From Limnothrix sp. BL-A-16 (lineage in GTDB: Bacteria; Cyanobacteriota; Cyanobacteriia; CACIAM-69d): a DNA stretch of 64,000 nucleotides. The DNA is taken from contig CP166615.1 of NCBI GenBank assembly GCA_041937175.2, forward strand, positions 224,001-288,000, in the 5' to 3' direction. Position 1 is the first letter of the stretch, and each line of letters starts with the position of its first letter. The notes beneath the pieces are model-generated. The model was not told the origin of the DNA. It ran no database searches and was given only the letters and a program-made list of their open reading frames with translations. Below are positions 1 to 41,840 of this stretch, in pieces. Made by a program: the position numbers and the translations under genes.

Positions 1-833
1 TAAACGATGTGTTGTCCCTGAAGCAAGCCAACCTGGGCATTGCCATGGAAAGTGGCAGCAAAGCCACCCGCAGTGCCGCCGACATTGTGTTGCTGGGCGA
101 CTCCTTCGAGACCCTGCCCTATACCTTTTTGGAGGGGCAACGGATTGGCAACGGCATCCGCGATGTGCTGAAGCTGTTTATGGTGCGGGTGTTTTGCGTC
201 ACCCTGTTGATTCTTTGCACGGGGCAAGTGCTGGGAACCTTTCCGCTGCTGAATAAACACAGCGCCGTGGTGACGATCGTGGCGGTGGGGCTGCCCACCT
301 TTGGATTTCCCCTGTGGGCCCGGCCGGGGAAACCGCGCCAAAAGAGCGTCCTCAAGTCCATGCTGAATTTCACCTTGCCCGCGACCTTGACCCTCACCCC
401 GATCGCGGTGGCGGTTTACTTGGGCTATTTGGTCACCACCATTTGGAGCGCCACCCAAACGGGCGAGGAGTTGGTGGCCTTGAACGATGCGCTCTTGGCC
501 GTGCCCCGCAGCGCCCTGGTGACCCTGTTGGTGAGCTGCGGCCTGTTGCTCGTGCCGTTTTTGAAGCCGCCAGCGGGGCCTTGGGTGGCGGCGGAACCCC
601 TCTGTGGCGATCGTCGCTATTCCCTGTTGGCCTTGGGACTGTTGGGGGTCTATGCCGGTTTGGTGGCCCTGCCGGGAACGCGCGAGTTTTTTGAGTTGGC
701 GCTGTTGCAACCGGTGGACTATTTGCTGATTGGGGCGATCGCCCTGAGTTGGTGTTTGCTGTTGCGATATATCTGGCGATCGGGATTGTTCGATCGATTC
801 TTAGGGTTCAAACTCAGCGATTGGAATCATTAA
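1..833 (+). CDS. P-type cation-transporting ATPase, C-terminal part (starts before window)
   Basis: NDVLSLKQANLGIAMESGSKATRSAADIVLL hinge motif followed by several TM helices; frame is open at the window edge. Confidence 0.85.
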   Translation, partial: NDVLSLKQANLGIAMESGSKATRSAADIVLLGDSFETLPYTFLEGQRIGNGIRDVLKLFMVRVFCVTLLILCTGQVLGTFPLLNKHSAVVTIVAVGLPTFGFPLWARPGKPRQKSVLKSMLNFTLPATLTLTPIAVAVYLGYLVTTIWSATQTGEELVALNDALLAVPRSALVTLLVSCGLLLVPFLKPPAGPWVAAEPLCGDRRYSLLALGLLGVYAGLVALPGTREFFELALLQPVDYLLIGAIALSWCLLLRYIWRSGLFDRFLGFKLSDWNH

Positions 834-2115
834 GGGATCGTGCGGGCGATCGCTGGGCTGTTTTGCGCCAACGGATTGCCGGAATTTCAATCGCCCAGTA
901 GGTGAAGCTGGCCAGGGCGATCGATCCCAAAAACACCAACCCCAACCGTTCGCCATAGGCCACCAAGGGCGATCGGTTCGTGATCAACGGGCCGATCACC
1001 TTCAGTAAGGGATAGTGCCAAACATAAAGCCCAAAAGATAACAACCCGAGCAATTCCCAAGCCCTGAACGGATTAGCCGCCATGGCCGATCGGGAAAGGG
1101 GCCGGTTGCGTCCAGAGCTGAAATAAACCCGTCGTTCAAAGGCAAAAATAAACAGCCCCGTCGCCAACACCGTCAGCCCCGGAGCCACCAACAACACCCG
1201 ATCGCTCCCTTGATATTTCCACCAGGCGGCCAACCCATAAAGCAGCCCCATCGCCCCGATCGCCCAGCCTTTCCAGGGCAACCCCAGAATCGATCGGCTC
1301 CAAGCCAGGGTCACCCAGGGCCGAACCGGCAACCGTTGCCCTGGCTCGATCGGGTCTGTTTTGCCCTCCGCTAGGTCGATCGTTGGGAGTCGGTTTTGGT
1401 GTAGCTTTTGCATCAGCGGATTCAGCCAAAAACCCACCAGAAAGGCATCTAAATTGGCCGGCAAAAAAGTATAGATATAGCGAATAAAATAGGGATTGCC
1501 TTCCGTGCTACCCAATAATTGTTCAATTAACTCAAAAACTCCGAACCGATAGAGCATTAATCCACTGATCACCGCTGCCATGGCCACCAACAAGGACGGC
1601 CCGGTTTTCAGCCACCGCCGACTTGCCCAAAAAACGCAAGGGGCGATCGCATAAAATTGCACTTCCGTGGAAAGTGACCATAGGGGCGCATTAAACTCAA
1701 AGGGCAGAGAATGCTCATAGGTAAAAGTCAGCAACCGCAGCAAATGGCCCCAATGATTGGGTTGCCAACTGTGGGGATAAAACACCGCTGCCGATATCAA
1801 AATACAGGCATAGTAAAGCGGCAAAATTCGAGTGGCACGATTCTGAAAATATCGAATGATGCCAGGGCGATCGAGCCGATAGCGTTCGGTATAAAATCCC
1901 TTACCGATCAAATAGCCTGACAAGCAAAAAAACACCCGCACCGCCACGCCCCCCGGCGCAAACAGCACCCAACTCCAATCCTGTCCAGCCCAGACCAAGC
2001 TTTGGGCCGGCGGGCCGCAGTGGGCCACAATCACCAAACAGCAAGCCACCCCCCGCAAGGTCAGCAATGCGTCCCAACGGTTGGGCGGGCGCAAACCAGA
2101 ACCATCAGCAACCAT
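814..2115 (-). CDS. Acyltransferase-3 family membrane O-acyltransferase
   Basis: D-x-L-x-x-LRGVA, GVAVRVFFCLSGYLI, LWSLSTEVQFY, SFGLYVWHYP motifs; start may be 2115 or 2139. Confidence 0.85.
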   Translation of the reverse strand: MVADGSGLRPPNRWDALLTLRGVACCLVIVAHCGPPAQSLVWAGQDWSWVLFAPGGVAVRVFFCLSGYLIGKGFYTERYRLDRPGIIRYFQNRATRILPLYYACILISAAVFYPHSWQPNHWGHLLRLLTFTYEHSLPFEFNAPLWSLSTEVQFYAIAPCVFWASRRWLKTGPSLLVAMAAVISGLMLYRFGVFELIEQLLGSTEGNPYFIRYIYTFLPANLDAFLVGFWLNPLMQKLHQNRLPTIDLAEGKTDPIEPGQRLPVRPWVTLAWSRSILGLPWKGWAIGAMGLLYGLAAWWKYQGSDRVLLVAPGLTVLATGLFIFAFERRVYFSSGRNRPLSRSAMAANPFRAWELLGLLSFGLYVWHYPLLKVIGPLITNRSPLVAYGERLGLVFLGSIALASFTYWAIEIPAIRWRKTAQRSPARSLNDSNR

Positions 2116-2231
2116 GGCCAAGTGCCGCCAGCAAAACACTACGGTAAAGTAACACTACGGTTCACCGCTGCTCGCCCGTCGCGCTCTGTTCAGTCTCCTT
2201 TTCATTCAGTTTTTCCGGGGACAATTCACCC

Positions 2232-3650
2232 ATGCCTGCCCGTTGCGTTCCTTCCCGTGCTGAATTTTCCCTGAATGGACTGCTGCGATCGCTGCGGTGG
2301 GCAATGTCAGCGGGGGCGATCGCCCTGGTTTTGACCAGCGCTGGGGAAGTGGCTCGCGCCCAGTTACCGTTTCTGGATAACCTGCCGATTTTTGATATCT
2401 TTTCCCGGCCGGTCAAGGATGAATTTCCGCCCAGTCCGCTGGAACTGTTAGAGGCGGATCCGCTGCTGCCGGAGTTTCCGATGCAGCGGGAACTGTCGCC
2501 CACGGAGCGCGATCGGCTGCGTTTGGCCCTCGATGAATTGAACCTGCAAGCGGCGGCCACCCTGCGGGCCGGCAAAACCCTAGAGGCCTTCGCCCTTTGG
2601 AATCGAGAATTGCGATTGCGGCGGTTTTTGGGAGTGTTTGAAGAATTGCCGGCCCTGGGGCGGGTGGGCGAGCTGGCTTGGCGGGAAGGGGCCGTGGAAG
2701 AAACAAGGGTGGTGACCGATCGCATCAAGGCGATCCAAGCGGGGCAAACGGGCCCCAAACCGGTTTTGCCCGACGAACAACCGTTGCCCATCCCTGAAGA
2801 TCCGGCGCTGCTGGAGGCCCTGGGCTTGGCCTATTACCAAGTGCGTGCGCCCAAGTTGGCCTTGGCGGTGTTGGAACCGCGCCTGTTGATGGCCAGAACG
2901 GCCGATGATTCTACGGAAATTGAAAAATATCTGGTGGCGATCGGTCAATTGCGGGCCAGCCTGTTTGAGGATGCGGCCGCTGTGGATGCCTACCGGGAAC
3001 TGCTGGCGATCGAGCGGGCCAAAATTGCCGCCGGTCGTTGGGTGGTGGTGCCCGTGCCGCCGGGCACAGAACCCACGATTCCGCTCCATCGCCAGGCCGA
3101 GGTGCGCTATGCGCGGGAATTGGTGATGTTGCTGAATCGATCGCGCCAGTGGGATGAGGCGATCGCCGCCCAGCGCGATTTGTTGGGGGTCTATCAAGAA
3201 TTGGGGATTGTGCGGCTAATTCCGCCCTTGATGAGCGAGTTGGCCGCCAATTTTGACCGGGCCGATCGGGTGGAAGAAGCGGTGTTGCAATATCGCGAAA
3301 CGGCCGCCGCTGCCCGCTCCATCAAGCAGTTGGGCATTGCCCGAGAAGCGCTCGATCGCCTGGCCACTCTCTATCGCAGCCGCCCCGCCTTTGCCGACAA
3401 GCCCGATCTGCTGGCCAGTCTTTACATCAGCCTGTTGGAGCTGGCCCGCGAGGCGGCGGACGGCTACGGGATGATGGACACCTATGAAAAATTGGGTGAT
3501 TTGTTTGTGAGTTTGAACCAGCGCGATCGGGCCCGCATTGCCTACGAACAGGCGGCGATTTTGGCGAAGCAGTTGCAACACCGCGAAAGTTATTTCGCCC
3601 GCAAGCTCCAAGACCTGGGCCCCGCCCCCGCCCCCTTCAACCAACCGTAA
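2232..3650 (+). CDS. TPR-like helical repeat protein with N-terminal signal/TM segment
   Basis: 472-aa ORF, hydrophobic N-terminus, TPR-like helices; start uncertain. Confidence 0.7.
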   Translation: MPARCVPSRAEFSLNGLLRSLRWAMSAGAIALVLTSAGEVARAQLPFLDNLPIFDIFSRPVKDEFPPSPLELLEADPLLPEFPMQRELSPTERDRLRLALDELNLQAAATLRAGKTLEAFALWNRELRLRRFLGVFEELPALGRVGELAWREGAVEETRVVTDRIKAIQAGQTGPKPVLPDEQPLPIPEDPALLEALGLAYYQVRAPKLALAVLEPRLLMARTADDSTEIEKYLVAIGQLRASLFEDAAAVDAYRELLAIERAKIAAGRWVVVPVPPGTEPTIPLHRQAEVRYARELVMLLNRSRQWDEAIAAQRDLLGVYQELGIVRLIPPLMSELAANFDRADRVEEAVLQYRETAAAARSIKQLGIAREALDRLATLYRSRPAFADKPDLLASLYISLLELAREAADGYGMMDTYEKLGDLFVSLNQRDRARIAYEQAAILAKQLQHRESYFARKLQDLGPAPAPFNQP

Positions 3651-3739
3651 TGGCTGGGTTTCCTAGGTTGCACTTGAAAGTTTCCAATCCCATAAATTTG
3701 CGAATTTTTGAAGGCATTGAGCACAGAAAACTCTCCTCA

Positions 3740-3870
3740 GAGGATGTCTGAGAAATATCTTTTAGTATGGGCTAAGGATCAATGACCGTGGGGACAAGGG
3801 GCTTAAGCCCCTTGTCTACGTCGATCCCTGGGGCGTACAGAGTAGCAATTTTGGCTTTTTAGACATCCTC
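3740..3870. mobile_element. MITE family A (131 bp)
   Basis: Ends GAGGATGTCT...AGACATCCTC, TCA direct repeat at 3737-3739 and 3871-3873, internal 24-bp palindrome 3793-3816; related 131-bp copy at 48137-48267. Confidence 0.85.
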
Positions 3871-3889
3871 TCAGAAGTGCTAGACCTCC

Positions 3890-4972
3890 ATGCCAACCAG
3901 TTCCCAGCCAACTGATGATGCCGAGCAAACCCAAGCTGTCAGTTTTCCGCCGCTCACGGAAATTACGTTTGAGGAAGGCTATCTCGAAGCCGAGGAAATC
4001 CCATTTGCAGAATTGGCCCAACAGCAAGCTCAGAGCGAGGAACTATCAAGCCCAAAACCTCCCCAGATTCAGACCCTGCCTCTGGAGCCATTTACCTTTG
4101 AAACCGCTGCCCGATCGCCTGATCTGGAAATCCAGCGTTCTACAGGGAAAGCCCAGCAGTTCATTGAGCAATTGCCCAATGGGTTGACCCTAGCGATGGT
4201 GTTGATTCCCAGCGGCACGTTTCTGATGGGAGCACCTGAAGCAGAACCCCAATCTCGCGATAGCGAGCGCCCCCAGCATCTGGTGACAGTCCCTGAGTTT
4301 TTGATGGGGAGATATCCAATGACCCAAGCTCAATGGTGGGCGATCGCCGAGTTGCCCAAGGTCAACATTGACCTCAACCCCAATCCCGCAAAGTTCACAG
4401 AACATGACCGGGGCGATCGGGCTGAAAACCGCCCGGTGGAATGTGTCACTTGGCACGAAGCGATCGAAGCTTGCGATCGGCTCTCCCATGCCACTGGCCG
4501 CCCCTATGGTTTGCCCAGCGAAGCCCAGTGGGAATACGCTTGCCGTGCTGGAGCCACCAAGCCCACACCTTTTTGCTTTGGTGAACCAATCACGCCCGAG
4601 CTGGCGAACTACGACGGCAACTACACCTACGCCAACGGCCCCAAGGGAGCCTCTCGCCAGCGCACCACCGCCGTTGGCAGCTTTCCAGCCAATGCCTGGG
4701 GCCTGCATGATATGCACGGCAATGTTTGGGAATGGTGCGCTGATCTTTGGCACTCCAATTATCAGGGTGCGCCCACCGATGGCAGCGCCTGGACATCAGA
4801 TTCGACAAAAGATTCGCGGCCTTTGCGAGGCGGTTCCTGGAGCAGCAATCCCAGCAATTGTCGCTCTGCGGTTCGTGTCAAAAATTCACCGGACAGCCGC
4901 TTTAACTATGTCGGTTTTCGAGTTTGTTGTGCCGTTGCGCAGGCTCCCGAAGTGGGCTTGGTTGAAGAGTGA
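3890..4972 (+). CDS. FGE-sulfatase (SUMF1/CLec-fold) domain protein 1
   Basis: IPSGTFLMG, LPSEAQWEYACRAG, NAWGLHDMHGNVWEW, RGGSW...GFRVCC motifs; acidic N-terminal linker. Confidence 0.9.
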   Translation: MPTSSQPTDDAEQTQAVSFPPLTEITFEEGYLEAEEIPFAELAQQQAQSEELSSPKPPQIQTLPLEPFTFETAARSPDLEIQRSTGKAQQFIEQLPNGLTLAMVLIPSGTFLMGAPEAEPQSRDSERPQHLVTVPEFLMGRYPMTQAQWWAIAELPKVNIDLNPNPAKFTEHDRGDRAENRPVECVTWHEAIEACDRLSHATGRPYGLPSEAQWEYACRAGATKPTPFCFGEPITPELANYDGNYTYANGPKGASRQRTTAVGSFPANAWGLHDMHGNVWEWCADLWHSNYQGAPTDGSAWTSDSTKDSRPLRGGSWSSNPSNCRSAVRVKNSPDSRFNYVGFRVCCAVAQAPEVGLVEE

Positions 4973-5123
4973 TATAGGTATCTGGGAGCACGATCGGGAG
5001 GTAAGACCAATCTCCATATTCAACGACGATGATCGACTGGGTAGCCGCAATCCACGAATCATTGCGACTCGTTTTCCAAGCTTCCATCATCCCAAAAAGT
5101 GCAAGAGATCTTAATTTGTTGCC

Positions 5124-6032
5124 ATGTCCAGTGTTGCTAACCCTGCCGTGCGATTTGTGTTGCGCTACCGTTCGCGCAATGCCTTGCAATATGTCGAAGA
5201 CTTAGGTAACGGCATCACCCTGGAAATGCTAAAAATTCCCGGTGGCACATTTCTGATGGGATCGCCTGCTCATGAGCTAGGGCGTTATGAGGATGTGGGA
5301 GAAGAGCTGCACGCCGTCACCGTACCGGATTTTTTCCTAGGTAAATATCCAATCACCCAAGCCCAATGGCGAGCGATTTGTGCGCTGCCACCCGCTAATG
5401 CTGACTTAGTGCTGAATCCCAATCCCGCACAGTGTCTCAACGACTTTCAGGATGGAGAAACGGTGATTAGTACCGATCAGCGCCCCGTAGAGTACGTTAG
5501 TTGGCACGAAGCTACCGAAGCTTGCGCTCGCCTGGCCCAAGCCACTGGCCGCCCCTATTGTTTGCCCAGCGAAGCCCAGTGGGAATATGCCTGTCGTGCT
5601 GGGACAACCACGCCCTTTCACTTTGGCGAAACCCTCACTAGTGAAGTGGCGAATTACGATGCGGTGAGTTACGTTGAGTACGATGCCTACAGCCTTGGCT
5701 CCCAAGGAGAATATCGGCAAGAGACTACTCCGGTTGGCTACTTTCCGCCCAATGCTTGGGGCCTGCATGATATGCACGGCAATGTCTGGGAATGGTGCGC
5801 TGATCTTTGGCACTCTCACTATCAAGGTGCGCCCACCGATGGCAGCGCTTGGATCGTAGACGCGGAAAGCGATGCACGGCTTTTGCGGGGCGGTTCATGG
5901 TACTACAGCCCTGAGAATTGTCGCTCTGCGGTTCGTAGCTACTTTTCGCCGGAGAGCCTCAGTGCTGTTGTCGGTTTTCGAGTTTGTTGTGCCGTTGTGC
6001 GGACTCGCGAAGTGGGCTTGGTTGAAGAGTGA
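5124..6032 (+). CDS. FGE-sulfatase (SUMF1/CLec-fold) domain protein 2
   Basis: Same motifs; 3' part near-identical in DNA to 3890..4972 at offset 1060. Confidence 0.9.
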   Translation: MSSVANPAVRFVLRYRSRNALQYVEDLGNGITLEMLKIPGGTFLMGSPAHELGRYEDVGEELHAVTVPDFFLGKYPITQAQWRAICALPPANADLVLNPNPAQCLNDFQDGETVISTDQRPVEYVSWHEATEACARLAQATGRPYCLPSEAQWEYACRAGTTTPFHFGETLTSEVANYDAVSYVEYDAYSLGSQGEYRQETTPVGYFPPNAWGLHDMHGNVWEWCADLWHSHYQGAPTDGSAWIVDAESDARLLRGGSWYYSPENCRSAVRSYFSPESLSAVVGFRVCCAVVRTREVGLVEE

Positions 6033-6040
6033 TGTAGGCT

Positions 6041-6093
6041 TGCATGGGAGCATGATCGGGAGGAAATCACCATCTCCATTCATCTCCCATGCA
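6041..6093. other. Hairpin downstream of second FGE gene
   Basis: TGCATGGGAG (6041-6050) is the reverse complement of CTCCCATGCA (6084-6093). Confidence 0.5.
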
Positions 6094-6162
6094 CCGCTAC
6101 TAACGTTGGTTTAAGTTGCTCAAACCTAGTACTGAGAAGAGAAGCGGCTCTAAGGCTCAAGA

Positions 6163-6558
6163 CTATTTTGGCGGCGGGGTTGGTTTATCGGGAAATTTGC
6201 ATTTCACTTCGATGCCAAAGTCGTAGTCCATGGAGCCGCGCACCAAAAAGGGAATCCCACTTTGTCCACCGATTTTGACGTTGAATTTCACGGTCATTTC
6301 TTCAACGTTGGCAGTAGAAAATTGCCGAAAAGCGCCGATGCAAAATAGGGCATAGCCGCGCAGTTGCTTATGGGCTTCCTTGAGCTTGGCTTCCACGAAG
6401 GAGGGATTATCATCATCGCCACCCCGCCTTCCCCTGCCATCTTCTGAGCGATTTGAGCGATCGGGAACTGTGGATTCCCCATCGGCTGACGCGAACAAGA
6501 TAGTGTATTCTTCTCCAGTTTCAGGATCTTTGAAAAACAATGACTCAGGCACGGACAT
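6163..6558 (-). CDS. Trypco1 / CU044_2847-like peptidase co-occurring small protein
   Basis: Helix then VEEMTVKFNVKIGGQSGIPFLVRGSMDYDFGIEVKCKF pattern; likely start MSVPES at 6558. Confidence 0.7.
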   Translation of the reverse strand: MSVPESLFFKDPETGEEYTILFASADGESTVPDRSNRSEDGRGRRGGDDDNPSFVEAKLKEAHKQLRGYALFCIGAFRQFSTANVEEMTVKFNVKIGGQSGIPFLVRGSMDYDFGIEVKCKFPDKPTPPPK

Positions 6559-6626
6559 AGCCAACCTCGCAGACTTAAGAAATATCGGATATCTTAGGTA
6601 AAGTTTACCGTAACCCAAATTAGTCC

Positions 6627-9600
6627 ATGCCTAAGAAAGCCCTAGTCATTGGAATTTCACAGTTTGATGATGTGGGCTTCCGATCATTAACCTGCGATCG
6701 CGATCTAGATCGAATTAGCGCATGGTTTAAGACACAGAATTATGATGTCAAAATCGCTCCCGAACTTTATAGCCAAGAAACACAAGAAATCTATCCCGAC
6801 CCAAAAGGGAAGCTTAATTACAATAACCTTAGAAATGAGCTAAAAAGATTCTTAACAGAAACAGTTAGGGGCTGTGAGTTGGCAGTGGTTTACATTGCCA
6901 GTCATGGTTGCTTGAAAACAGATGATAATGATGAGCCAGTGGCTTGTCTGGTGGCATCTGACACACCCAAGAAAAAGGAAGATAAAAATAAGACTTATCT
7001 GTTGGCAAGCTTGGCCAAGCTATTCGAGACTGCTGATGTTAATAATTTAGTGGGGATTTTTGATTTTTGCCATGCAGGGGCGATCACTGATCTAATTGAA
7101 GAAGTTGAAGCATCTTTTAAAAGACAAAAAAATTATGTTTTATTGGCGGCCTGTCACGCCAGCGAATCGGCATTTGACACCCAAGAAGGCGGTGTTTTCA
7201 CAACAGTATTATTAGAAGGACTGTCTCCTCAAAATGTAGACGAAAAGGGACGAATAACTGCGGCAAAATTATGTGATTTTGTACGAACGCGCCTAGGGAA
7301 TAGCGGTCAAACGGCCCGATGTCTTCCGGGGAAAGAGCTTTTAGCGATCGGGCAGTACGATCGCGCTGAAATCGAGACGGCGCAGGCGGCCACGGTTGAT
7401 CCGAAGCCGGAGCGGGGGCTGGAGCTGCCTGTGGGGTTTCGGCGGGTGGCGGAGTTGGTGGCGAAGGCAGAGTCGATTCAGCCGAGCCAAACCCAGTTTT
7501 ATCAGGCGACGGCTCCCCACTGGAGCGACATCAAGGCGAACTGTGATGCGCCGCGTGATTTGTATGCCGAGGTGAAGCAGTTTGTAATTGATCGACTCGA
7601 TCCAAAGTATTGGGCGATCGACCCGTTGGATGACACGTTTCGGCTGCCCCCTGTGCCCTTGGGGGTGATTGTGGGGCGGGGTGGCGAGGGCAAGAGCACC
7701 CTGTTGATGCGGGTGGCGGCGGATTTGGCGGCGGCGGGCTATGAAGTTTGGTGGCGGGAGGAGCGGCTGTCGGGGCTGAATGTGACGGCGTTGGCGACAA
7801 TGCCGCAGCCTGATCGGCCGGTGTTGGTTTGTGTGGATGAGTTGTTGTCTGGGGATGAGGAGGAGTTGCTGGGGGGTTTGATGCAGCTCTACCGGCAGAG
7901 CACGCCGTTGGTGTTGCTGGGAACGGTGCGGCAAGAGTTGTGGCGAGGGCAAATTGAGGAGCGGGCGGGGGGCGAAACCGAGATCGCTGCCTTTAAGTTT
8001 GGGGCGCTTGGCCCGTCGGAGCTAGAGGCGATCGTGGCCAAGCTGGAGGCGGCGAACAAGCTGGGGGAGTTGGCCAAGCTGGAGCCGGCCGAACGGGTGC
8101 AGCATCTGTTGACCAAGGCGGATGGTCAGTTGCTGATCTTGTTGTGTGAAGTTTGCGATCGAGAAGGTGTGAAAGCGCTGGTGCAGCGGAATTTGGATGC
8201 GCTGAAAAGCCAAAACCCCAATGGTGAGCTGGTGGTCGAAGCCTGCCAATATGTGGCGCTATTGCATAGTTTTGGCTTGGAAATGCCGCACACCCATTTG
8301 GGAAAGTTGTTGAATTTCAAAACAGATTTTGAACATATCAAGAAAGTTTTGAAGAGAACTCAGGGATTTTTAGAAGTTAGACGCACGTCAGAGGTTGATT
8401 GGTTTCAGACTCGTCATGCTTATGTAGCTGACATTATGGTTGAAGCTATGGTTAAGTCTCTAGAAGAAGATATTTATGATCGAATTTCGTCGTTTTTAAC
8501 GAATGCCATTAATGAATTTCAAGGTGAGCTGGTTCAGCCCTTTCTGAAAGTTCTAACCAGTCAGTGGCAGCTACTTCAGTTAGATATTGAATTGCTGAGG
8601 CGAGTCTTCGGGAGTTTAAATAAATCTTCGACAGTTCAGAAGGTGATTCTCAGTATTTGGGCAAATTTAGAAGCTTCTCTCAGCAATATCGAAGGAGCAA
8701 GAGATCTTTTCCGACAAGCTGTAGAGGCCGATCTAGACGATCCTAGATCGCTACAGATGTGGGCGGATTTTGAAGCAAGGCAGAATGAGCTAGAACAAGC
8801 CAGAAAACTGCTAGAGCAAGCTGTTGCACTCAATCATCAATATCGATTTGCTTGGACTAGTTTGTTAAAGCTTGAAAGACGCTGTAACAATCTGGAGCGA
8901 GCGCGGGAGATATTCCAATTGCTGTGGGAGCAGCAACCGGAAAACATCAGCCATCTAATTGACTGGATTGATTTTGAAACGCAACAGCGTAATTGGGATG
9001 ATGTTCGAGAACTATTAGAGCGAGCAACTAGCTTGCCAGGGATTCATGTTGGTCTATTTCATCGATGGATCAGGCTAGAAAAGCAGCAAGGAAATTATGC
9101 AAAAGCCTTAGCTATCTGTGAACGAGCTTTAGAGCAACATGCTGGCAATATCAGTTTGTTGCTTGCAGAAGCTATTTTGCATAGGCAAAGCGGCAACCCC
9201 GATCGCGCGAGAGAACTGTTCGAGCGAGCGAGCCAAGCCAATCCAAGCGATGCACCCGTTTGGCAAGCCTGGGCGTTGTTTGAGAAAGAGCAGCGCAACC
9301 CCGATCGTGCGAGAGAACTGTTCGAGCGAGCGAGCCAAGCCGACCCCAGTAATGCACCCGTTTGGCAAGCCTGGGCGTTGTTTGAGAAAGAGCAGCGCAA
9401 CCCCGATCGCGCGAGAGAACTGTTCGAGCGAGCCAGCCAAGCCGACCCCAGTCATGCACCCGTTTGGCAAGCCTGGGCGTTGTTTGAGAAAGAGCAGCGC
9501 AACCCCGATCGCGCGAGAGAACTGTTCGAGCGAGCCAGCCAAGCCGACCCCAGTCATGCACCCGTTTGGCAAGCCTGGGCGTTGTTTGAGAAAGAGCAGC

Positions 9601-11582
9601 GCAACCCCGATCGCGCGAGAGAACTGTTCGAGCGAGCCAGCCAAGCCGACCCCAGTAATGCACCCACCTTGCAAGCCTGGGCGTTGTTTGAGAAAGAGCA
9701 GCGCAACCCCGATCGCGCGAGAGAACTGTTCGAGCGAGCGAGCCAAGCCGACCCCAGTCATGCACCCGTTTGGCAAGCCTGGGCGTTGTTTGAGAAAGAG
9801 CAGCGCAACCCCGATCGCGCGAGAGAACTGTTCGAGCGAGCCAGCCAAGCCAATCCAAGCGATGCACTCACCTTGCAAGCCTGGGCGTTGTTTGAGAAAG
9901 AGCAGCGCAACCCCGATCGCGCGAGAGAACTGTTCGAGCGAGCCAGCCAAGCCAATCCAAGCGATGCACTCACCTTGCAAGCCTGGGCGTTGTTTGAGAA
10001 AGAGCAGCGCAACCCCGATCGCGCGAGAGAACTGTTCGAGCGAGCCAGCCAAGCCGACCCCAGTCATGCACCCACCTTGCAAGCCTGGGCGTTGTTTGAG
10101 AAAGAGCAGCGCAACCCCGATCGTGCGAGAGAACTGTTCGAGCGAGCCAGCCAAGCCGACCCCAGTAATGCACCCGTTTGGCAAGCCTGGGCGTTGTTTG
10201 AGAAAGAGCAGCGCAACCCCGATCGCGCGAGAGAACTGTTCGAGCGAGCCAGCCAAGCCGACCCCAGTCATGCACCCGTTTGGCAAGCCTGGGCGTTGTT
10301 TGAGAAAGAGCAGCGCAACCCCGATCGCGCGAGAGAACTGTTCGAGCGAGCCAGCCAAGCCGACCCCAGTAATGCACCCACCTTGCAAGCCTGGGCGTTG
10401 TTTGAGAAAGAGCAGCGCAACCCCGATCGCGCGAGAGAACTGTTCGAGCGAGCCAGCCAAGCCAATCCAAGCGATGCACCCACCTTGCAAGCCTGGGCGT
10501 TGTTTGAGAAAGAGCAGCGCAACCCCGATCGCGCGAGAGAACTGTTCGAGCGAGCCAGCCAAGCCGACCCCAGTCATGCACCCACCTTGCAAGCCTGGGC
10601 GTTGTTTGAGAAAGAGCAGCGCAACCCCGATCGCGCGAGAGAACTGTTCGAGCGAGCCAGCCAAGCCGACCCCAGTCATGCACCCACCTTGCAAGCCTGG
10701 GCGTTGTTTGAGAAAGAGCAGCGCAACCCCGATCGCGCGAGAGAACTGTTCGAGCGAGCCAGCCAAGCCGACCCCAGTCATGCACCCACCTTGCAAGCCT
10801 GGGCGTTGTTTGAGAAAGAGCAGCGCAACCCCGATCGCGCGAGAGAACTGTTCGAGCGAGCCAGCCAAGCCGACCCCAGTAATGCACCCACCTTGCAAGC
10901 CTGGGCGTTGTTTGAGAAAGAGCAGCGCAACCCCGATCGCGCGAGAGAACTGTTCGAGCGAGCCAGCCAAGCCGACCCCAGTAATGCACCCGTTTGGCAA
11001 GCCTGGGGGTGGATGGAAAAAGAACAGGGCAACCTCAAACAAGCCCGGTCTCTGTTGCAACAAGCCTTGGCACTCGACCCCAGCAATGCCGTTGTTTGCC
11101 GCTCCCTCACGGAATTGGAAGTCGAGCAACAAAACTGGGAAGCAGCCCTCGACTATGCCAACCGCTCCATTGCTGGCAAACACAAAGAGGAACGATACCG
11201 GCGAGAGGTGGTGGCCTTGCGCGCCAAAATCCACCTCGCCTTAGGCAACCCAGAACTAGCCAGCGCCGACTTTCGCTATTTGGATCAAGCCCTGCAAGCC
11301 CAACTCGCCCAACAGCCCCACAGCGTGCCCTTGATGGTGCAACGGGCCCAACATCTGATCCAATGGGGCCAATGCAACCCTGCCAAATGGGCCGAAGCCG
11401 CCACCCTGCTGACCCAAGCCGCAAAACTCGCCAGCCCTAGGCAAAAACTCTATGTGCTGAACGCCCAAGGGGAACTGGCCCTAGCCCAGGGCGATCGTCG
11501 CAGTGCGATCAAATATTGGGACTCCGCCCTGCGCCACGATCCCACCTTCGCCCCCGCCCGCCAAAACCGTGATCGCGCCTAA
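6627..11582 (+). CDS. Caspase-like (peptidase C14) + STAND-like P-loop NTPase + HAT/TPR repeat protein
   Basis: KKALVIGIS start, YIASHG (His) and FDFCHAG (Cys) dyad; Walker A GRGGEGKST; Walker B VLVCVDE; long array of 34-aa helical repeats. Confidence 0.88.
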   Translation: MPKKALVIGISQFDDVGFRSLTCDRDLDRISAWFKTQNYDVKIAPELYSQETQEIYPDPKGKLNYNNLRNELKRFLTETVRGCELAVVYIASHGCLKTDDNDEPVACLVASDTPKKKEDKNKTYLLASLAKLFETADVNNLVGIFDFCHAGAITDLIEEVEASFKRQKNYVLLAACHASESAFDTQEGGVFTTVLLEGLSPQNVDEKGRITAAKLCDFVRTRLGNSGQTARCLPGKELLAIGQYDRAEIETAQAATVDPKPERGLELPVGFRRVAELVAKAESIQPSQTQFYQATAPHWSDIKANCDAPRDLYAEVKQFVIDRLDPKYWAIDPLDDTFRLPPVPLGVIVGRGGEGKSTLLMRVAADLAAAGYEVWWREERLSGLNVTALATMPQPDRPVLVCVDELLSGDEEELLGGLMQLYRQSTPLVLLGTVRQELWRGQIEERAGGETEIAAFKFGALGPSELEAIVAKLEAANKLGELAKLEPAERVQHLLTKADGQLLILLCEVCDREGVKALVQRNLDALKSQNPNGELVVEACQYVALLHSFGLEMPHTHLGKLLNFKTDFEHIKKVLKRTQGFLEVRRTSEVDWFQTRHAYVADIMVEAMVKSLEEDIYDRISSFLTNAINEFQGELVQPFLKVLTSQWQLLQLDIELLRRVFGSLNKSSTVQKVILSIWANLEASLSNIEGARDLFRQAVEADLDDPRSLQMWADFEARQNELEQARKLLEQAVALNHQYRFAWTSLLKLERRCNNLERAREIFQLLWEQQPENISHLIDWIDFETQQRNWDDVRELLERATSLPGIHVGLFHRWIRLEKQQGNYAKALAICERALEQHAGNISLLLAEAILHRQSGNPDRARELFERASQANPSDAPVWQAWALFEKEQRNPDRARELFERASQADPSNAPVWQAWALFEKEQRNPDRARELFERASQADPSHAPVWQAWALFEKEQRNPDRARELFERASQADPSHAPVWQAWALFEKEQRNPDRARELFERASQADPSNAPTLQAWALFEKEQRNPDRARELFERASQADPSHAPVWQAWALFEKEQRNPDRARELFERASQANPSDALTLQAWALFEKEQRNPDRARELFERASQANPSDALTLQAWALFEKEQRNPDRARELFERASQADPSHAPTLQAWALFEKEQRNPDRARELFERASQADPSNAPVWQAWALFEKEQRNPDRARELFERASQADPSHAPVWQAWALFEKEQRNPDRARELFERASQADPSNAPTLQAWALFEKEQRNPDRARELFERASQANPSDAPTLQAWALFEKEQRNPDRARELFERASQADPSHAPTLQAWALFEKEQRNPDRARELFERASQADPSHAPTLQAWALFEKEQRNPDRARELFERASQADPSHAPTLQAWALFEKEQRNPDRARELFERASQADPSNAPTLQAWALFEKEQRNPDRARELFERASQADPSNAPVWQAWGWMEKEQGNLKQARSLLQQALALDPSNAVVCRSLTELEVEQQNWEAALDYANRSIAGKHKEERYRREVVALRAKIHLALGNPELASADFRYLDQALQAQLAQQPHSVPLMVQRAQHLIQWGQCNPAKWAEAATLLTQAAKLASPRQKLYVLNAQGELALAQGDRRSAIKYWDSALRHDPTFAPARQNRDRA
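9193..11007 (+). repeat. Coding tandem array of 18 x 102-bp units (34-aa HAT/TPR repeats, last unit partial)
   Basis: NPD codons start at 9195, 9297 ... 10929; units differ at only a few positions. Confidence 0.97.
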
Positions 11583-11645: not shown

Positions 11646-13610
11646 CTAGATCGGAATTTCGATCGTGAACGTGGTTCCCTCCTGGGCCGTTGAATGGCAA
11701 CGGAGCGATCCTTGGTGCTGTTCCTGCACAATTTGGTAGCTGATGGCCAAACCCAGCCCCGTGCCCTGGCCGATCGGCTTGGTGGTGTAAAACGGCTCAA
11801 AAATCTTCGATTGCAGCGCTTCGGGAATGCCCAAGCCGTTGTCCTGGATGGCAATTTGCACCCGATCGGGCTGGCTGAGGCGCGTGATGATTCGCAATTG
11901 GGGCGCAAATCCGGCTCCCTCCTGGGCCCAGCGATCGCCCAAGGCATCGATCGCATTGCTCAACAGATTCATCAACACCTGATTGAGCTGATTGGCGTGG
12001 CAAGTGACTGGGGGCAAATCACCATAGTCCTTAGTCACTTGAATGGCCGGGCGATCGCCCTGATCAATCAATCGGTGATTCAAAATCATCAATGTGTTGT
12101 CTAGCCCCTCATGCAAATCCACCGCCTTCATGCTGGACTCATCCAAGCGGGAAAAATTCCGCAGCCCCAACACAATATTGGTAATTCGTTGGCAACCGGA
12201 TTGCAACGAGCCGAGCACTTGCGGTAAATCGGCGATCAGGAAGTCGAAATCCAGATCCTCCAGGCGATCGCGCATGGCCGGCGAAAGATTGGGGTATTCC
12301 GCTTGATAGGCCTGAACAATGCTCACCAAATCCTGGAAATAGGTTTCCATGTGGTACAAATTCCCCGCAATGAACGCCGTGGGGTTATTGATTTCATGGG
12401 CAATTCCGGCCACCATTTGCCCCAAGCTCGACATCTTTTCCGCTTGGATGAGTTGGGCTTGGGTTTGGCGCAACCGCTGGAGTGTTTCTTGGAGTTTGGC
12501 GGTGCGTTCTTCCACCTTTTGTTCCAAGGAAAAATTGGCCGCTTGCAAGGCTTCGGCCCGGCGATGGGCTTCCATGGCAATGCTGGCCAAGCTGGCGGCG
12601 GTGTTGATTACCTCTCGGTGATAGGCCGTGGGCTGGCAGGGAAACCGGTGCGACAGGGCAAAGGTTCCCAGCACTTCGCCATTGGCCGCCAAAAAGGGTG
12701 ACGACCAACAGGCGCGGATCCCATGGCTGAGGGCAAAGTCTCGAAAGGGCGACCAAAGGGGGTTGGTAGCAATGTCCGTGGCAAAGACCGGCTCGCCGCG
12801 ATAGGCCGCCGTGCCGCAGGATCCGGCACATTCGCCAATCATCAACCCATCAACCCCTTGGGCAAATTCCGTGGGCAGGCTGGGGGCGGCTCCGGCTCGC
12901 AGGCATTTTTGCTCGGGATCCAAGACCAAGATTGAGCAATAGGCTCCGGGCAGTTCCTGTTCCAGCAGTTCACAGAGTTGATTGAAAACGAATTGCAGCT
13001 TGCTCCCCTTAGCGATCGAACCGAGGACGCGGCTTTGGGTGTCGATCAATGCTTCCGATCTCCGCCGTTCGATCGCCCCCGCCAGCACATTGGTCACGGC
13101 TTGCAGGAAGTAAACGTCATCTTCCGAGAACGATCGGGGCTGTTCGTGATGAACTTCCAGCAGCCCCAGCAGTTGATCGCGGCCCACCACGCCCAGCAGC
13201 AAACCGCTTTGGCTGTTGGCGGGCAAGGGCAGGGGAAAGTTTTGTAAATCGTGACCTAAGGGCACATTCGCCGCCAGCAATTGCGATTCCACGCTGAAGA
13301 GCGATTGCACCAAGGGCACATTCGCCACGCTGACTTCCATGGGTTCGTTGGCGGCGGCGGGAATGGTGGCCACACGCCGCAGGGACTGGCGATCGGACAA
13401 CACGCGCCAAATGCTGCTGTAGGAAATTTTCAGCACCTCTGTCACCGCTTGCACAGCCCGCTCAAACAGGCGATCGAGCTGATTTTCCAGCAAGGCCCAC
13501 TGGCTTAAGGCTGTGATCACCATTTGTGAATTGCGATCGCTCAAGCAAGAGTAGGTCGCGCGATCGGGAGCCGTCAACGGAGAGTGGATAGCAGGATTAG
13601 CAAAGCTCAT
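11646..13610 (-). CDS. GAF-GAF sensor histidine kinase
   Basis: Two GAF domains; H-box AGIAHEINNP; NLLSNAIDA, DNGLGI, FYTTKPIGQGTGLGL boxes. Confidence 0.92.
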   Translation of the reverse strand: MSFANPAIHSPLTAPDRATYSCLSDRNSQMVITALSQWALLENQLDRLFERAVQAVTEVLKISYSSIWRVLSDRQSLRRVATIPAAANEPMEVSVANVPLVQSLFSVESQLLAANVPLGHDLQNFPLPLPANSQSGLLLGVVGRDQLLGLLEVHHEQPRSFSEDDVYFLQAVTNVLAGAIERRRSEALIDTQSRVLGSIAKGSKLQFVFNQLCELLEQELPGAYCSILVLDPEQKCLRAGAAPSLPTEFAQGVDGLMIGECAGSCGTAAYRGEPVFATDIATNPLWSPFRDFALSHGIRACWSSPFLAANGEVLGTFALSHRFPCQPTAYHREVINTAASLASIAMEAHRRAEALQAANFSLEQKVEERTAKLQETLQRLRQTQAQLIQAEKMSSLGQMVAGIAHEINNPTAFIAGNLYHMETYFQDLVSIVQAYQAEYPNLSPAMRDRLEDLDFDFLIADLPQVLGSLQSGCQRITNIVLGLRNFSRLDESSMKAVDLHEGLDNTLMILNHRLIDQGDRPAIQVTKDYGDLPPVTCHANQLNQVLMNLLSNAIDALGDRWAQEGAGFAPQLRIITRLSQPDRVQIAIQDNGLGIPEALQSKIFEPFYTTKPIGQGTGLGLAISYQIVQEQHQGSLRCHSTAQEGTTFTIEIPI

Positions 13611-14222: not shown

Positions 14223-17200
14223 CTAGCGGTTGAGCAGCCATTTTTGGATTAATTCCATCAGGTGCTTCAGGCGCATGGGCTTGCTGAGGTAATCGTTGGC
14301 CCCCGCTTGCAGACAACGCTCCTGATCGCCCGGCATGGTCAGGGCCGTGAGGGCAATAATTGGCACATTTGCCAGTCCCTCATCCTTGCGAATTTGCCGC
14401 ATCGCTTCAATGCCATCAACCCCAGGCATTTGGATATCCATCACAATCAGGTCAGGGTGCTCCAGGGTGGCCAGGGTCACGGCGGCCGCCCCGTCCCGAG
14501 CCACCAACAGTCGATAGCCCTTCGTATCCAAGTAAGACGACACGGTGACAATGTTCGCTTCATTGTCTTCCACCAGCAAAATCAGGGGCGCGGACTCGGG
14601 CCCCTCCAGCAGCGAAGTGGTTTCTGTTACCTCAGCCCCTTGGCCGCTCACCGCTGACGCTGACACGGCCTGTGTGAGGGGCAAGGTAAAGGAAAAACAA
14701 CTGCCCTGGCCCAGGGTGCTGGTGACGTTCACCATGCCCCCATGGAGATTCACAATTCGTTTGACCAGGGCCAGGCCCAAGCCGGTTCCCTCATATTGCC
14801 GGTTCAAGGCACTATCCACCTGAATGAAGGGCTGAAAGAGCCGTTTCAGGTTTTCTTCGCTGATGCCGATGCCGGTGTCGGTGACGCTGAATCGCAGGGC
14901 TTCGTAGAGGGTTTGGCTGTCGGGGTCGGGCTGGGCGATCGCGCCTTCTAGGTTGGAATAGCCCACCTCCAGCAAGATTGAGCCGCCTTCGGAGGTGAAC
15001 TTCACCGCATTATTTAACAGATTGATCAACACCTGTCGCACCCGTCGCTCGTCAATGCGGATGGGCGGAAAGTCTCGGGGTAATTTGGTGCTCAGGCGAA
15101 TTCGTTTTTCCAAGGCCTGTTGTTTCACAAAGGCCAAACTGGACTCGCAAAGGGGGTGAATTTCCACATCGTTGTAGGCCAATTCCACTCGCCCGGCTTC
15201 AATTTTAGCCAGATCCAGAATGTCGTTAATCAGGGACAGCAAATGATTGCCGCTGCGTTCAATGATTTGCAGCACTTTGATTTGTTGATCGGAAACGGAG
15301 CCAAACACATTCTCTTGCAGCCCTTCCACAATGCCCAAAATGGCGTTGAGCGGGGTTCGTAATTCATGGCTCATGTTGGCCAAGAATTCATCCTTGAGGC
15401 GGGTGGCGCGGGCCAATTCCTCGTTGTTGAGGGCAAGCTGTTGGTTGCGCTCGGTGAGTTGCGCTTGGGCGGCTTGCCGCTGGGTCAGTTCCTGTTGCAG
15501 TCGATCGACCAAGGTGGCTTGCTGAATTGCGATCGCCAATTGGTTAGCAATTTGTTGCAGTAACTGAGCCTCAGATTCTTGCCAAACCCGCTTTTGATGG
15601 CAGGCATGAACCACCAAAACGCCCCAGAGTTTATTGGGCACAGTGGGAGCAACCCAACGGTGATCTTCGTGGGCAAAGGCTTCCTGCAAAATCGGAGCCA
15701 CAATTTTGGATTGGATCTGACCTTCTTGAGAATATTCTCGTAGGCAATCGGTCCAGCGATCGTCCATCACATCGGCTACAATTCGGGACTTGCCTTGCCA
15801 GTACCACTCCAAGATTTCCGAAGACCAAACTTCATCTTCCCAATGGCGATCCTTGAGGTGAACTAATCCTTCAAGGACGGTTTCTTCAACGATCGCGCTG
15901 CGGCCATCATCAAATAGTTGAAACACAATCACCCGATCGCACTGCATCACCGCCTGCACCTGTTGGGTGACGGTGTGCAAAATATGATTGAGGTTTAAAG
16001 ATTGCCGAATGCGTTCGGTAATTTGTGCCAGAACAGTTTGTTCCTGTAACTGGCGGCTGATGCGTAATTCGGCCTGTTGGCGCACCTCTAGTTCTTGCTG
16101 CACTTGGTGATAGAGACTGGACTGCTGAATGGCGATCGCCAATTGATTAGAAAGCCGGTGGGCTAATTCCACCTCATCTGGCAACCAATGACGCGGGCGA
16201 TCGCACTGATGAATGCACAGCAATCCCCACAGCTCCGAACCACAAAGCAGCGGCATCACCAAATTAGCCCGCACTTCAAACTGGGCCAAAATATCGCTGT
16301 GGCATTTGGTGAGACCATTGCTGTAAATGTCATCCACCACAAAGTAGCGACCATTGGCATAAAGCTGGGAATAATTATCCCCAAAACAGTGATCATGAAT
16401 GCGAAGACTGAGGGCAGAAGAATAGGGCGCAATCACCGACTCCGCCACAAAACAGCCGTCGTCGTAGTCTGTTTGGGGATAAAATTGAAAAATTCCAACT
16501 CGATCGGCTTGCAGCACGGCTCGAATTTCATTACAAGCCACATCAAAAATGGTTTGTAAATCCAAAGATTGCCGAATTCGTTCAGCAATCATGAGCGCCA
16601 AATGCTCACTTTCGGCTTGTTTTTTTAAGGTAGCCTCGGCCTGCTTCCGCCTTGTAATTTCCTGGGCGGTTCCCAAGATACCTAAAATTTGGCCGTGAGC
16701 ATCTTTGAGTGGGATTTTGTTGGTTTCTAACCAAATCGTTGAGCCATCCACCAAGCCATATTCCCGTTCGCAGCGGAGGGTCGCTTCCCCCGATCTCAAA
16801 ACTTGTCGATCTTCTTCTTGAATCTGTGCCAAGGTTTCCGAATCCCAAGGCAGTTGATCATCTCCAACCCCAACTAATTCCTCGGCAGAACTTAAGCCAA
16901 TGGTTGTGGCGCTGTAGTTATTAATGCCTTGATATTTCAGGTGCTGATCTTTCCAAAAAACAGCGATCGGAACCGTATCCAAAATGCCTTGCAGGAGTTG
17001 TTGGGATGCATGGCACTCGCGCTCAGCCTGTTTTTGGGCGCTGATATCACGACAAACGCAAATTAACAATCCATCGTCTGTGACGGTGAGGGATAAGCCC
17101 TCATCAAAACTACTCCCATCTGGCCGTTGGGCAATGGCTTCCCCTTGCCAAGCCCGATCGCGGATCAAAATTGGAAAAACTTCCCGCTTAAAGCGGTCTA

Positions 17201-19455: not shown

Positions 19456-19539
19456 GGGGCAACTCGGGAAAGGTTAATCGGGCAGGTTGAGAAAACGGAG
19501 GCACGAACGCAGCGATCGAAAAAACCGATTGGGGGTTAG

Positions 19540-19616
19540 GGCCGGTCGTCGTTTAACCCGAAACCCTAGATCCGCTAACGGTGGAATCCGGGTTTCAGGC
19601 AATTTGACCACAGGCC
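19540..19616. mobile_element. Short foldback derivative of MITE family B
   Basis: GGCCGGTCGTC...TGACCACAGGCC between TTAG and CTAG; its reverse complement matches the left part of the 34135 and 41700 copies. Confidence 0.6.
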
Positions 19617-34107: not shown

Positions 34108-34134
34108 GGCGGTGGAAATGATGACGGATCCTAG

Positions 34135-34282
34135 GGCCTGTCGTCAAATCGCCCAAAATCTTGATTCCACCGTTGGCAGATTGTGGGGGACAAGGGGCTT
34201 AAGCCCCTTGTTACGACGACTGGGACATGGAAAATCAACCGTTTAACCGCTTTTGCTGGATTCTAGGAAATGACGACAAACC
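34135..34282. mobile_element. MITE family B (148 bp)
   Basis: GGCCTGTCGTCA...TGACGACAAACC flanked by CTAG (34131-34, 34283-86); internal palindrome 34189-34212. Confidence 0.8.
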
Positions 34283-41596: not shown

Positions 41597-41699
41597 GCTC
41601 ATGGCGGCTGATCCCAGCTCGCCGGGCTGATGGCCGGTTGCCAAATCGCCCGAAACTCGGATTCCACTTCTAGCGAGTCGTGAGGAGCAAGGGGCTTAG

Positions 41700-41840
41700 G
41701 GCCTGTCGTCAAATCGCCTGAAACCCTAGATCTGCCGTTAGCGGATCGTGGGGGACAAGGGGCTTAAGCCCCTTGTCTAGGTCAGTTAGGGGCTGGAAGA
41801 TCAACGGGTTTTGCTTGATCCCAGCTTGTGACGACAGATC
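41700..41840. mobile_element. MITE family B copy, adjoining a decayed half copy (41642-41699)
   Basis: GGCCTGTCGTCAAATCGCC...TGACGACAGATC; palindrome 41754-41777; flanks TTAG/TTGG. Confidence 0.75.

Follow-up and report, generated by a model that had tools for sequence, protein, structure and literature searches.

Does positions 3740..11582 of a 64,000-nt stretch of Limnothrix sp. BL-A-16 (CP166615.1; the whole stretch is called the window below) hold one immune island of four genes, or separate things placed side by side? The locus carries a large gene, whose product joins a caspase-like protease, an nSTAND5 NTPase and HAT/TPR helical repeats, a small Trypco1 gene, and two FGE genes. The host genome is 100% complete and consists of 2 contigs. 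An earlier prediction, made from the letters alone (the original prediction), had read the four genes as a single NLR-like immune island.

Two separate things were found at the locus, i.e., a Trypco1-caspase module (6163-11582) and an FGE gene pair (3742-6141), and not one island. The explanation that we regard as probable has two parts: a protease-licensed suicide module, and a relic FGE pair beside it. The original prediction was partly supported. Its NLR-like logic was right, the inclusion of the FGE genes was wrong, and the probable role of Trypco1 as executioner was missed. The four genes were intact, with open reading frames (ORFs), coordinates and strands as it had described; the Trypco1-like gene is divergent from the large gene, with ATGs 68 bp apart, and the two FGE genes converge on the small Trypco1 gene. 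Pfam matches at the locus were far beyond chance. The features of the module are as follows.

6163..6558, minus strand: Trypco1/Pepco-family gene, 131 aa, predicted latent pore-forming toxin (Pfam, NCBIfam)
6559..6626: divergent intergenic region, 68 bp between the ATGs (sequence)
6627..11582, plus strand: caspase-nSTAND5-HAT/TPR gene, 1651 aa, presumed sensor joined to a protease (ORF, Pfam)
6633..7298, plus strand: Peptidase_C14 (caspase-like) domain, aa 3-224 (Pfam E 2.5e-12, 47.4 bits, cut-off 21.4)
6903-6905 and 7068-7070, plus strand: codons of His93 and Cys148, the catalytic dyad (alignments)
7494..7958, plus strand: nSTAND_NTPase5 (PF25199) domain, aa 290-444 (Pfam E 7.8e-17, 61.9 bits, cut-off 34)
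7674-7700, plus strand: Walker A, GRGGEGKST, aa 350-358 (sequence)
7824-7844, plus strand: Walker B, LVCVDEL, aa 400-406 (sequence)
8580..11546, plus strand: HAT/TPR helical repeat region, about aa 652-1640 (Pfam HAT_PRP39, HAT_Syf1 and TPR families; 34-residue register)
9192..11027, plus strand: array of 18 near-identical 34-aa (102-bp) units, aa 856-1467 (Tandem Repeats Finder, TRF; unit alignment)

The Trypco1-caspase cassette and its sensor

The effector-STAND-repeat architecture proposed for the 1651-aa protein was recovered by Pfam, and the catalytic and Walker motifs are intact. The His/Cys dyad, Walker A/B and helical repeats were confirmed by Pfam and alignments. His93 and Cys148 were invariant among 48 aligned caspase-domain proteins and in a separate 23-sequence domain alignment, where Asp26 and Asp146 were likewise invariant. 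In a search of PDB, the caspase-domain profile matched the MALT1 paracaspase (E 6.3e-9) and the metacaspases Yca1, AtMC4, and TbMCA2. Asp26 and Asp146 stand opposite acidic MALT1 residues in the HMMER alignment, and they are putative S1-pocket residues. Paracaspases and metacaspases cleave after Arg or Lys. Judged by homology, the caspase-like domain is of this paracaspase/metacaspase type and probably Arg/Lys-specific. The NCBIfam model "caspase, EACC1-associated type" reached 49.2 bits, below its cut-off of 140. A PDB sequence search with aa 1-680 of the large protein gave no match. The HAT/TPR region is presumed to be the ligand-binding sensor.

The Trypco1 protein and a few close homologs were aligned, and one genome per prokaryotic species was then scanned. 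The scan pattern demanded the EVKCK motif, and the following FP lay outside the pattern. Trypco1-subfamily loci were found in 57 cases, all cyanobacterial. A caspase-domain gene was in the same divergent position in 49 of them, and the 57 loci were distributed as follows.

47 loci: caspase-domain ORF divergently upstream of Trypco1 (tblastn)
L085 and L097: caspase domain divergently upstream of Trypco1 (Pfam)
L054 and L103: nSTAND1 fragments divergently upstream of Trypco1, one of them beside an ISL3 transposase (Pfam)
L108: upstream side cut by the contig end
L091, L096, L100, L105, and L109: no caspase gene; in four of the five, only partial Trypco1 matches

The Trypco1+caspase pair is a conserved effector cassette. 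In Argonema antarcticum (L054:6953-8217), the partner gene was cut down to an nSTAND1 fragment beside an ISL3-family transposase, and this locus is a copy of the module disrupted by an insertion sequence.

The spacer between the two genes was 66-68 bp long in 32 of the 47 loci with a tblastn-found caspase ORF. When the spacers of L053-L107 were compared, this length was kept from Nostoc-type genomes to the window. The window spacer has a TAAGATA box and, ahead of the Trypco1 ATG, a ribosome-binding site GAGG; both recur in the 40 spacers compared, where the box lies approximately 35 nt from that ATG. Most of these loci belong to Nostoc relatives and are not independent. The spacer may work as a compact bidirectional promoter or operator.

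Conservation of the pair does not extend to the sensor. The caspase ORFs of the 47 loci and of the window were compared, and Peptidase_C14 was present in all 48, nSTAND1 in 41, and WD40 in 28. The divergent arrangement of caspase-nSTAND5 and Trypco1 was found in two other places, i.e., in the closest relative, L053, whose Trypco1 is 94% identical, and in genome G318 (L045), where the gene is broken. With the Trypco1 + caspase-nSTAND1-WD40 loci, the window shares the Trypco1 subfamily with its EVKCKFP end, the divergent layout with its spacer of 66-68 bp, and the type of caspase domain, in which a His, a Cys, and two Asp residues never vary. It differs from them in its nSTAND5 and HAT/TPR sensor, and the Trypco1 proteins are just 35-47% identical.

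Further searches used parts of the large protein. When 400 other cyanobacterial genomes were scanned with aa 1-660, the caspase part was nearly alone in being matched, and only three substantial matches extended into the NTPase. A protein library search with aa 1-660 gave two caspase-WD40 proteins (8000 truncated candidates scored). The other library search, with aa 262-700 against 1.84 billion representatives, gave 315 proteins at E <= 0.001, of which 71 were at E <= 1e-10 and 12 at E <= 1e-30; the best relative was 38% identical. Among the best 51 of the 315 relatives, nSTAND5 was found in 51, TPR_14 in 35, HAT_PRP39_C in 17, and SIR2_2 in 4. Peptidase_C14 was not among the 25 families listed for these best 51, so the nSTAND5-TPR/HAT chassis normally carries other effectors. 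The window's own large protein was absent from the results of both library searches. The nSTAND5-TPR/HAT proteins form a small sensor family, which here has acquired the Trypco1-linked caspase cassette. The STAND and repeat part of the module is exchangeable, being usually nSTAND1-WD40 and here nSTAND5-HAT/TPR.

Within the helical region lies the 34-aa array. TRF reported a 102-bp unit in 18.1 copies with 95% matches at 9193-11034. The mean pairwise nucleotide identity between units was 94.4% (range 84.3-100), and 19 of the 102 nucleotide columns were variable. Amino-acid variation in the 17 inner units was limited to unit positions 17, 20, 22, 23, and 24, where the variants form linked, shuffled cassettes, i.e., NPSD, DPSN or DPSH paired with either VW or TL. 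The array belongs to the highly internally conserved repeats (units >85% identical over at least 100 aa), and 18 repeats with five variable positions look like a fast-diversifying recognition surface.

In L053 (Limnothrix redekei LRLZ20PSL1 contig), the array (L053:7260-7836) is broken by 98 N. Because of this N run, repeat numbers are not comparable between the window and L053, and the 890-aa ORF of L053 is an assembly artefact. The visible L053 units are identical to one another and different from the window units, which suggests concerted evolution of the repeats. Repeat-rich sensors are probably under-reported by short-read assemblies. Nucleotide identity between the window and L053 drops along the module towards the sensor end:

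Adjacent flanks: 93-95%
Right flank, farther out: 88.8%
Trypco1 gene: 89.1%
Spacer between the two genes: 76.5%
Caspase domain: 83.7%
NTPase: 83.8%
aa 461-700: 67.9%

Highly internally conserved repeats are characteristic of fungal NLRs (Dyrka et al. 2014, PMC4986451), and such repeats were noted earlier in bacterial NLRs too (Dyrka et al. 2020 preprint). The window protein has in common with the fungal het-e/het-d family the effector-NOD-repeat architecture, with WD/ANK/TPR repeats in the fungal proteins, and units >85% identical over >100 aa with few variable positions (Dyrka et al. 2014). It differs in being bacterial, in its caspase effector, and in its separate putative toxin substrate.

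This likeness raises another purpose for the same machinery, i.e., kin recognition or allorecognition, or a stress-induced cell-death switch in a filamentous cyanobacterium, as with the fungal het NLRs. The 18 near-identical repeats with few variable positions would suit such a switch (PMC4986451), as would the divergence from L053, which grows from the caspase domain to aa 461-700 between well-conserved flanks, and Dore et al. 2024 (PMC10907252) brought up kin recognition as one possibility. However, an antiphage sensor would be expected to evolve just as fast, and the experiments on Pepco modules are of phage-protein-triggered toxicity only. The observations at the locus fit both purposes alike; we consider a non-immune purpose unlikely, and the sensor is discussed below as one for an invader.

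The Trypco1 protein as a putative executioner

The first ATG of the Trypco1 gene is at 6558, and a longer, TTG-started frame extends to 6618. The protein matched Pfam Trypco1 (PF19493; E 6.9e-12, 46.3 bits, cut-off 24.6) and the NCBIfam CU044_2847 family (50 bits, cut-off 23). A search of PDB with the Trypco1 profile found no solved relative by sequence. The following parts were recognized, the structural ones in an AlphaFold2 (AF2) monomer with its predicted local distance difference test score (pLDDT).

aa 5-22: predicted N-terminal beta-hairpin (AF2, pLDDT 55.7)
aa 24-51, nt 6406-6489, minus strand: predicted disordered charged loop (AF2, pLDDT 55.7)
aa 52-78: predicted long helix (AF2, pLDDT 55.7)
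aa 84-121: predicted long beta-hairpin (AF2, pLDDT 55.7)
nt 6190-6210, minus strand: EVKCKFP motif (alignments)
nt 6166-6195, minus strand: 10-residue Pro/charge-rich tail FPDKPTPPPK (5 Pro, 3 charged residues)

The predicted helix and long beta-hairpin fit a barrel former. The tail after KFP had 1-13 residues in the Trypco1 relatives. The charged loop has basic residues in most Trypco1 homologs, and the column is not fixed.

Trypco1 and Trypco2 were named by Kaur et al. 2020 (PMC7159879), who described them as co-occurring with trypsin-like peptidases in VMAP ternary systems. In Dore et al. 2024 (PMC10907252), Trypco proteins are adapter domains near C-type-lectin sensors diversified by diversity-generating retroelements (DGRs). 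Evans et al. (bioRxiv 2025, 10.1101/2025.11.14.688446), in a preprint on a serine-protease partner, renamed Trypco as Pepco and described it as a pre-assembled beta-barrel pore toxin licensed by the neighboring protease. In that preprint, SsPepco and the trypsin-type SsAvs4 of Streptomyces subrutilus gave toxicity that depended on phage portal protein. The toxicity needed both Pepco and the catalytic serine, and Pepco deletion abolished it. Pepco formed sodium dodecyl sulfate (SDS)-resistant 9-10-mer beta-barrels; the protease cut after Ile97 and freed a 2-kDa (approximately 20-residue) tail, and Pepco truncated exactly at Ile97 was toxic by itself.

The window module resembles the SsPepco and SsAvs4 pair in having a small Pepco/Trypco gene beside a fusion of protease, STAND NTPase and repeat sensor, and in the Pro/charge-rich tail. 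The logic of trigger, protease, cleaved Pepco and pore would be expected here too. The differences are several: the protease is a caspase-like cysteine peptidase in place of a trypsin-like serine peptidase; nSTAND5 stands where the SsPepco pair has Avs4 as NTPase, and the sensor is HAT/TPR; the small protein is a Pfam Trypco1 with an extra N-terminal hairpin and disordered loop, and a 10-residue tail; and the genes are divergent, whereas the SsPepco pair is in tandem. The EACC1 and KrAvs12 modules (Evans et al. preprint; 'System 4' of Kaur et al. 2020) share with the window a caspase-STAND fusion that licenses, or in the window would license, a small pore-forming neighbor. There the small protein is EACC1, whereas it is Trypco1 in the window, and the EACC1-type caspase model stayed under its cut-off, as given above.

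On these grounds, a chain of events may be proposed for the module. The HAT/TPR array would bind an invader-derived protein, probably from a phage, and the nSTAND5 NTPase would then oligomerise. The oligomer would bring the N-terminal caspase-like domains together and so activate the protease. The active protease would cleave the divergently encoded Trypco1/Pepco, and the cleaved Trypco1 would become a membrane-permeabilising beta-barrel, by which the infected cell would die (abortive infection). Ligand binding, then NTPase oligomerisation, and then protease activation is the accepted activation model for effector-STAND-repeat proteins, and the preprint showed it for a Pepco/Avs4 pair (Evans et al. 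2025). The same order had been claimed in the original prediction, which agrees with that model.

By the same analogy with the serine-protease homolog, Trypco1 is probably the executioner, i.e., a protease-licensed pore toxin. It had been taken as a partner of the large protein; the pairing is indeed conserved, but an accessory role is not favored, since Trypco1 is probably the toxin itself.

An adaptor or regulator role, in which Trypco1 serves the protease and the caspase kills through other cellular proteins, would be in line with the introduction of Trypco1/Trypco2 as co-occurring domains with an open role (Kaur et al. 2020, PMC7159879), with the label of adapter domains in Dore et al. 2024 (PMC10907252), and with the very short C-terminal tails of the Trypco1 subfamily. 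Against these stand the loss of toxicity on Pepco deletion and the toxicity of site-truncated Pepco alone (Evans et al. preprint), and the predicted long beta-hairpin and helix, which fit a barrel former in a low-confidence model. The adaptor role is therefore quite improbable, and a pore toxin freed by cleavage is preferred.

The place of such a cut could be either the Lys-Cys-Lys end or the charged loop, because paracaspases and metacaspases have the cleavage preference given above. It is a tentative and rather doubtful idea that caspase-linked Trypco1 is licensed unlike the published Pepco, by an Arg/Lys-directed cut at EVKCK/FP (the slash marks the cut) or in the loop at aa 24-51. A cut in the loop may free an N-terminal hairpin pro-domain from the pore-forming helix-plus-hairpin core. 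A predicted complex of the caspase domain (aa 1-265) with Trypco1 scored 0.18 (mark 0.32), a value that, in a run without controls, weighs neither for nor against binding.

The FGE gene pair

The second part of the locus lies to the left of the module and consists of the following features.

3742..6141: 2.4-kb segment with both FGE genes and a multi-copy repeat, replaced by 29 bp in L053
3789..3871: palindrome-containing multi-copy repeat at the left edge of the FGE segment, core GGGGACAAGGGGCTTAAGCCCCTTGTC
3890..4972, plus strand: FGE1, 360 aa, intact ORF (FGE-sulfatase E 8.8e-54)
5124..6032, plus strand: FGE2, 302 aa (FGE-sulfatase E 4.7e-52)

The original prediction had counted the pair as a component of the system, and this did not hold. 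In tblastn with FGE1 and FGE2, none of the 57 Trypco1 loci had a match (flanks up to 10 kb per side), so that of the expected co-occurrence of genes only the caspase with Trypco1 (49 of the 57) stood. In blastn against L053, window positions 1-3741 matched at 94.7% and 6142-8734 at 80.6%, with no match between. The L053 genome has no close FGE1 or FGE2 homolog; its best match for FGE2 was 39% over 77 residues.

The relatives of the pair were found elsewhere. Of 401 cyanobacterial genomes searched, 130 had FGE domains of the FGE1/2 type, and in many cases a long frame came first and a short frame after it. In all four loci examined, the long-plus-short pair comes after a MoxR-type ATPase. Upstream in these four loci were Trypco1 with trypsin-VMAP in two, EAD6-VMAP in one, and a CoxE-type vWA gene in one; bAvd and a reverse transcriptase were downstream in one. 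FGE1 (aa 4-360) was 59% identical to aa 573-917 of a 921-aa long FGE component from a same-family genome, and this 921-aa protein is preceded by Trypco1, trypsin-VMAP, and a MoxR-type AAA_5 ATPase. FGE2 was 67% identical to the 304-aa short FGE partner in that genome. The VMAP/MoxR-vWA ternary systems (Kaur et al. 2020; Dore et al. 2024) are thus the known systems to which FGE1 and FGE2 are homologous, as their long and short components, and FGE1 differs in missing the N-terminal approximately 570 residues of the long one.

Because FGE1 equals the C-terminal part of the long component only, it appears from this homology to be a 5'-truncated relic of it (C-terminal approximately 345 residues, approximately 40%). 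The FGE1 ATG is placed just a few bases within the insertion junction. No VMAP, MoxR, vWA, Avd or reverse transcriptase gene was found at the window locus. VMAP-C was not found in the host genome, by a search that was positive in G220 and G260. The absence from the 57 loci, the L053 indel and the homology with VMAP/MoxR components place the pair outside the module. The strain-specific segment 3742-6141, being absent from L053 and homologous to these components, would be a fragment of a VMAP-type ternary system, i.e., a truncated long FGE and a short FGE, landed beside the module and left as a relic.

The C-terminal coding ends of the two genes (4800-4972 and 5860-6032) are almost the same; their differences are mainly in clusters of codons that lie between conserved blocks, like those of DGR variable regions, and stand where such regions usually differ. 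In some lineages, VMAP/MoxR ternary systems are linked to a DGR (Kaur et al. 2020, PMC7159879; Dore et al. 2024, PMC10907252). In the host genome, no RVT_1 (reverse transcriptase) match was found, and beyond weak matches in other FGE genes there was no template-repeat-like third copy of the FGE C-terminal DNA. The pair as an active DGR target was ruled out because the genome has neither a reverse transcriptase nor a template repeat. The pattern may be a historical trace. The same-family genome G220 has a full VMAP operon, likewise without reverse transcriptase.

One island of four genes, in which the FGE/C-type-lectin proteins sense an antigen in trans and feed the caspase-STAND protein and Trypco1, was weighed against these results. 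FGE proteins are recognized sensor domains of protease-Pepco modules in the literature, and in many cyanobacteria they were reported, and seen directly here, in operons with Trypco1 and peptidases; both window ORFs are intact, and their C-termini differ in the fashion of DGR variable regions. Nevertheless, such an island is highly unlikely, as no FGE homolog was found within about 10 kb of any of the 57 Trypco1-subfamily loci, L053 keeps the module without the 2.4-kb segment, FGE1 is just the C-terminal part of a VMAP-system component, the genes are convergent with the module and not co-transcribed, and VMAP-C, a reverse transcriptase and a template repeat are all missing from the genome.

Public sequencing runs gave further observations on the segment. 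An isolate-type contig of 3142 letters (run X10, record 16) covers 3842-6052, the whole FGE pair, with 29 differences, and runs on for 931 letters with no fit to the window at >=88%. In some strains, the FGE pair may thus stand beside another neighbor, or one that has diverged strongly. In runs X1, X2, and X10, contigs covered the flank and the FGE pair but hardly or not at all the Trypco1-caspase part (>=88% likeness); a stretch lacking cover is not taken as evidence.

The multi-copy repeat at the left edge is apparently an element resembling a miniature inverted-repeat transposable element (MITE). Related copies are at 19531-19575, 34126-34211, 41623-41776, and 56415-56498 of the window (families D9, D10, and D12). 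In lake metagenome runs, the summed contig depth over 3789-3871 was >1000, compared with approximately 26 beside it, and loose contig ends cluster at 3788-3804 and 3859-3876. A joint 3761->3842, which skips 80 bases, is weak because its shorter side has 27 letters and lies inside the repeat.

The probable two-part explanation and its meaning

Several points weigh against the explanation by a suicide module and a relic pair. The window Trypco1 protein had no match to Pfam Pepco (PF24393), and in hhalign its C-terminal, helix-plus-hairpin half alone aligned to the host's own PF24393 protein (62.9% probability, E 7e-5). The AF2 monomer is of low confidence (pLDDT 55.7). The tail of 10 residues (1-13 in relatives) compares with one of approximately 20 residues cut from the characterised Pepco, and the invariance of EVKCK is partly by construction because the scan pattern demanded it. 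The literature search found no cleavage site or experiment in print for a caspase-linked (cysteine-protease) Pepco. In published work, single systems join Trypco and peptidases with FGE/C-type-lectin (CLec) sensors. Neither FGE ORF is interrupted, and near-identical sequence of the pair is present in contigs from other public runs; therefore, the FGE pair may retain a residual or new function. PADLOC (PADLOC-DB 2.0, 2023 models) gave no Avs or other defined defence system at the locus, and the flanking genes, i.e., an acyltransferase, a signal-peptide TPR-like protein and GAF/PAS histidine kinases, are ordinary and form no defence island.

The newer Avs families named in the Evans et al. preprint are absent from the PADLOC models used. 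The sole PADLOC matches, PrimPol and PDC-M71B at aa 1403-1518 of the large protein, were repeat-driven, and the Trypco1 and FGE proteins had zero matches. The original prediction had not recognized the combination as a characterised system. The class of module is in the literature, however: Kaur et al. 2020 and Dore et al. 2024 described it from computation, and Evans et al. 2025 by experiment in one serine-protease case. The window module is therefore a further member of that class, with a swapped sensor.

In the host genome, three protease-Pepco modules were found, the window one included. The other two are:

C1:41613-44025 (L021:5614-8026): Pepco (PF24393), 177 aa, directly upstream of a 611-aa Peptidase_C14-FGE-sulfatase fusion (Pfam)
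C1:2872587-2874022 (L020:6588-8022): Trypco1, 106 aa, with a 366-aa Trypsin_2 protease directly downstream and then a 506-aa CBS-domain protein

The 177-aa Pepco terminates one residue past its last predicted strand.

Just downstream of the window module, two large GAF/PAS histidine kinases are encoded on the minus strand (11646-13610 and 14223-17954). The second, a hybrid kinase, has two receiver domains. Both are syntenic with L053 and appear unrelated to the module. Rfam and tRNA scans of the locus gave no match. The promoter and terminator scan gave nothing decisive, and most of its terminator-like matches came from a single motif that every repeat unit carries.

Death effectors licensed by a protease are coming to be seen as a main principle of bacterial immunity, parallel to the caspase-gasdermin axis of animals. 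The locus is a clean example, in a complete genome, of the cysteine-protease branch of the Pepco family, and it shows a Trypco1+caspase cassette moving between STAND sensors, from nSTAND1-WD40 to nSTAND5-HAT/TPR. It also shows that sensor-like neighboring genes can be the debris of another system, which calls for caution in guilt-by-association annotation of defence islands. Licensing by an Arg/Lys cut, if true, would give the most abundant family of protease-associated effectors a second mode of activation, and the 34-aa repeat cassettes would be a way to retune the sensor by shuffling.

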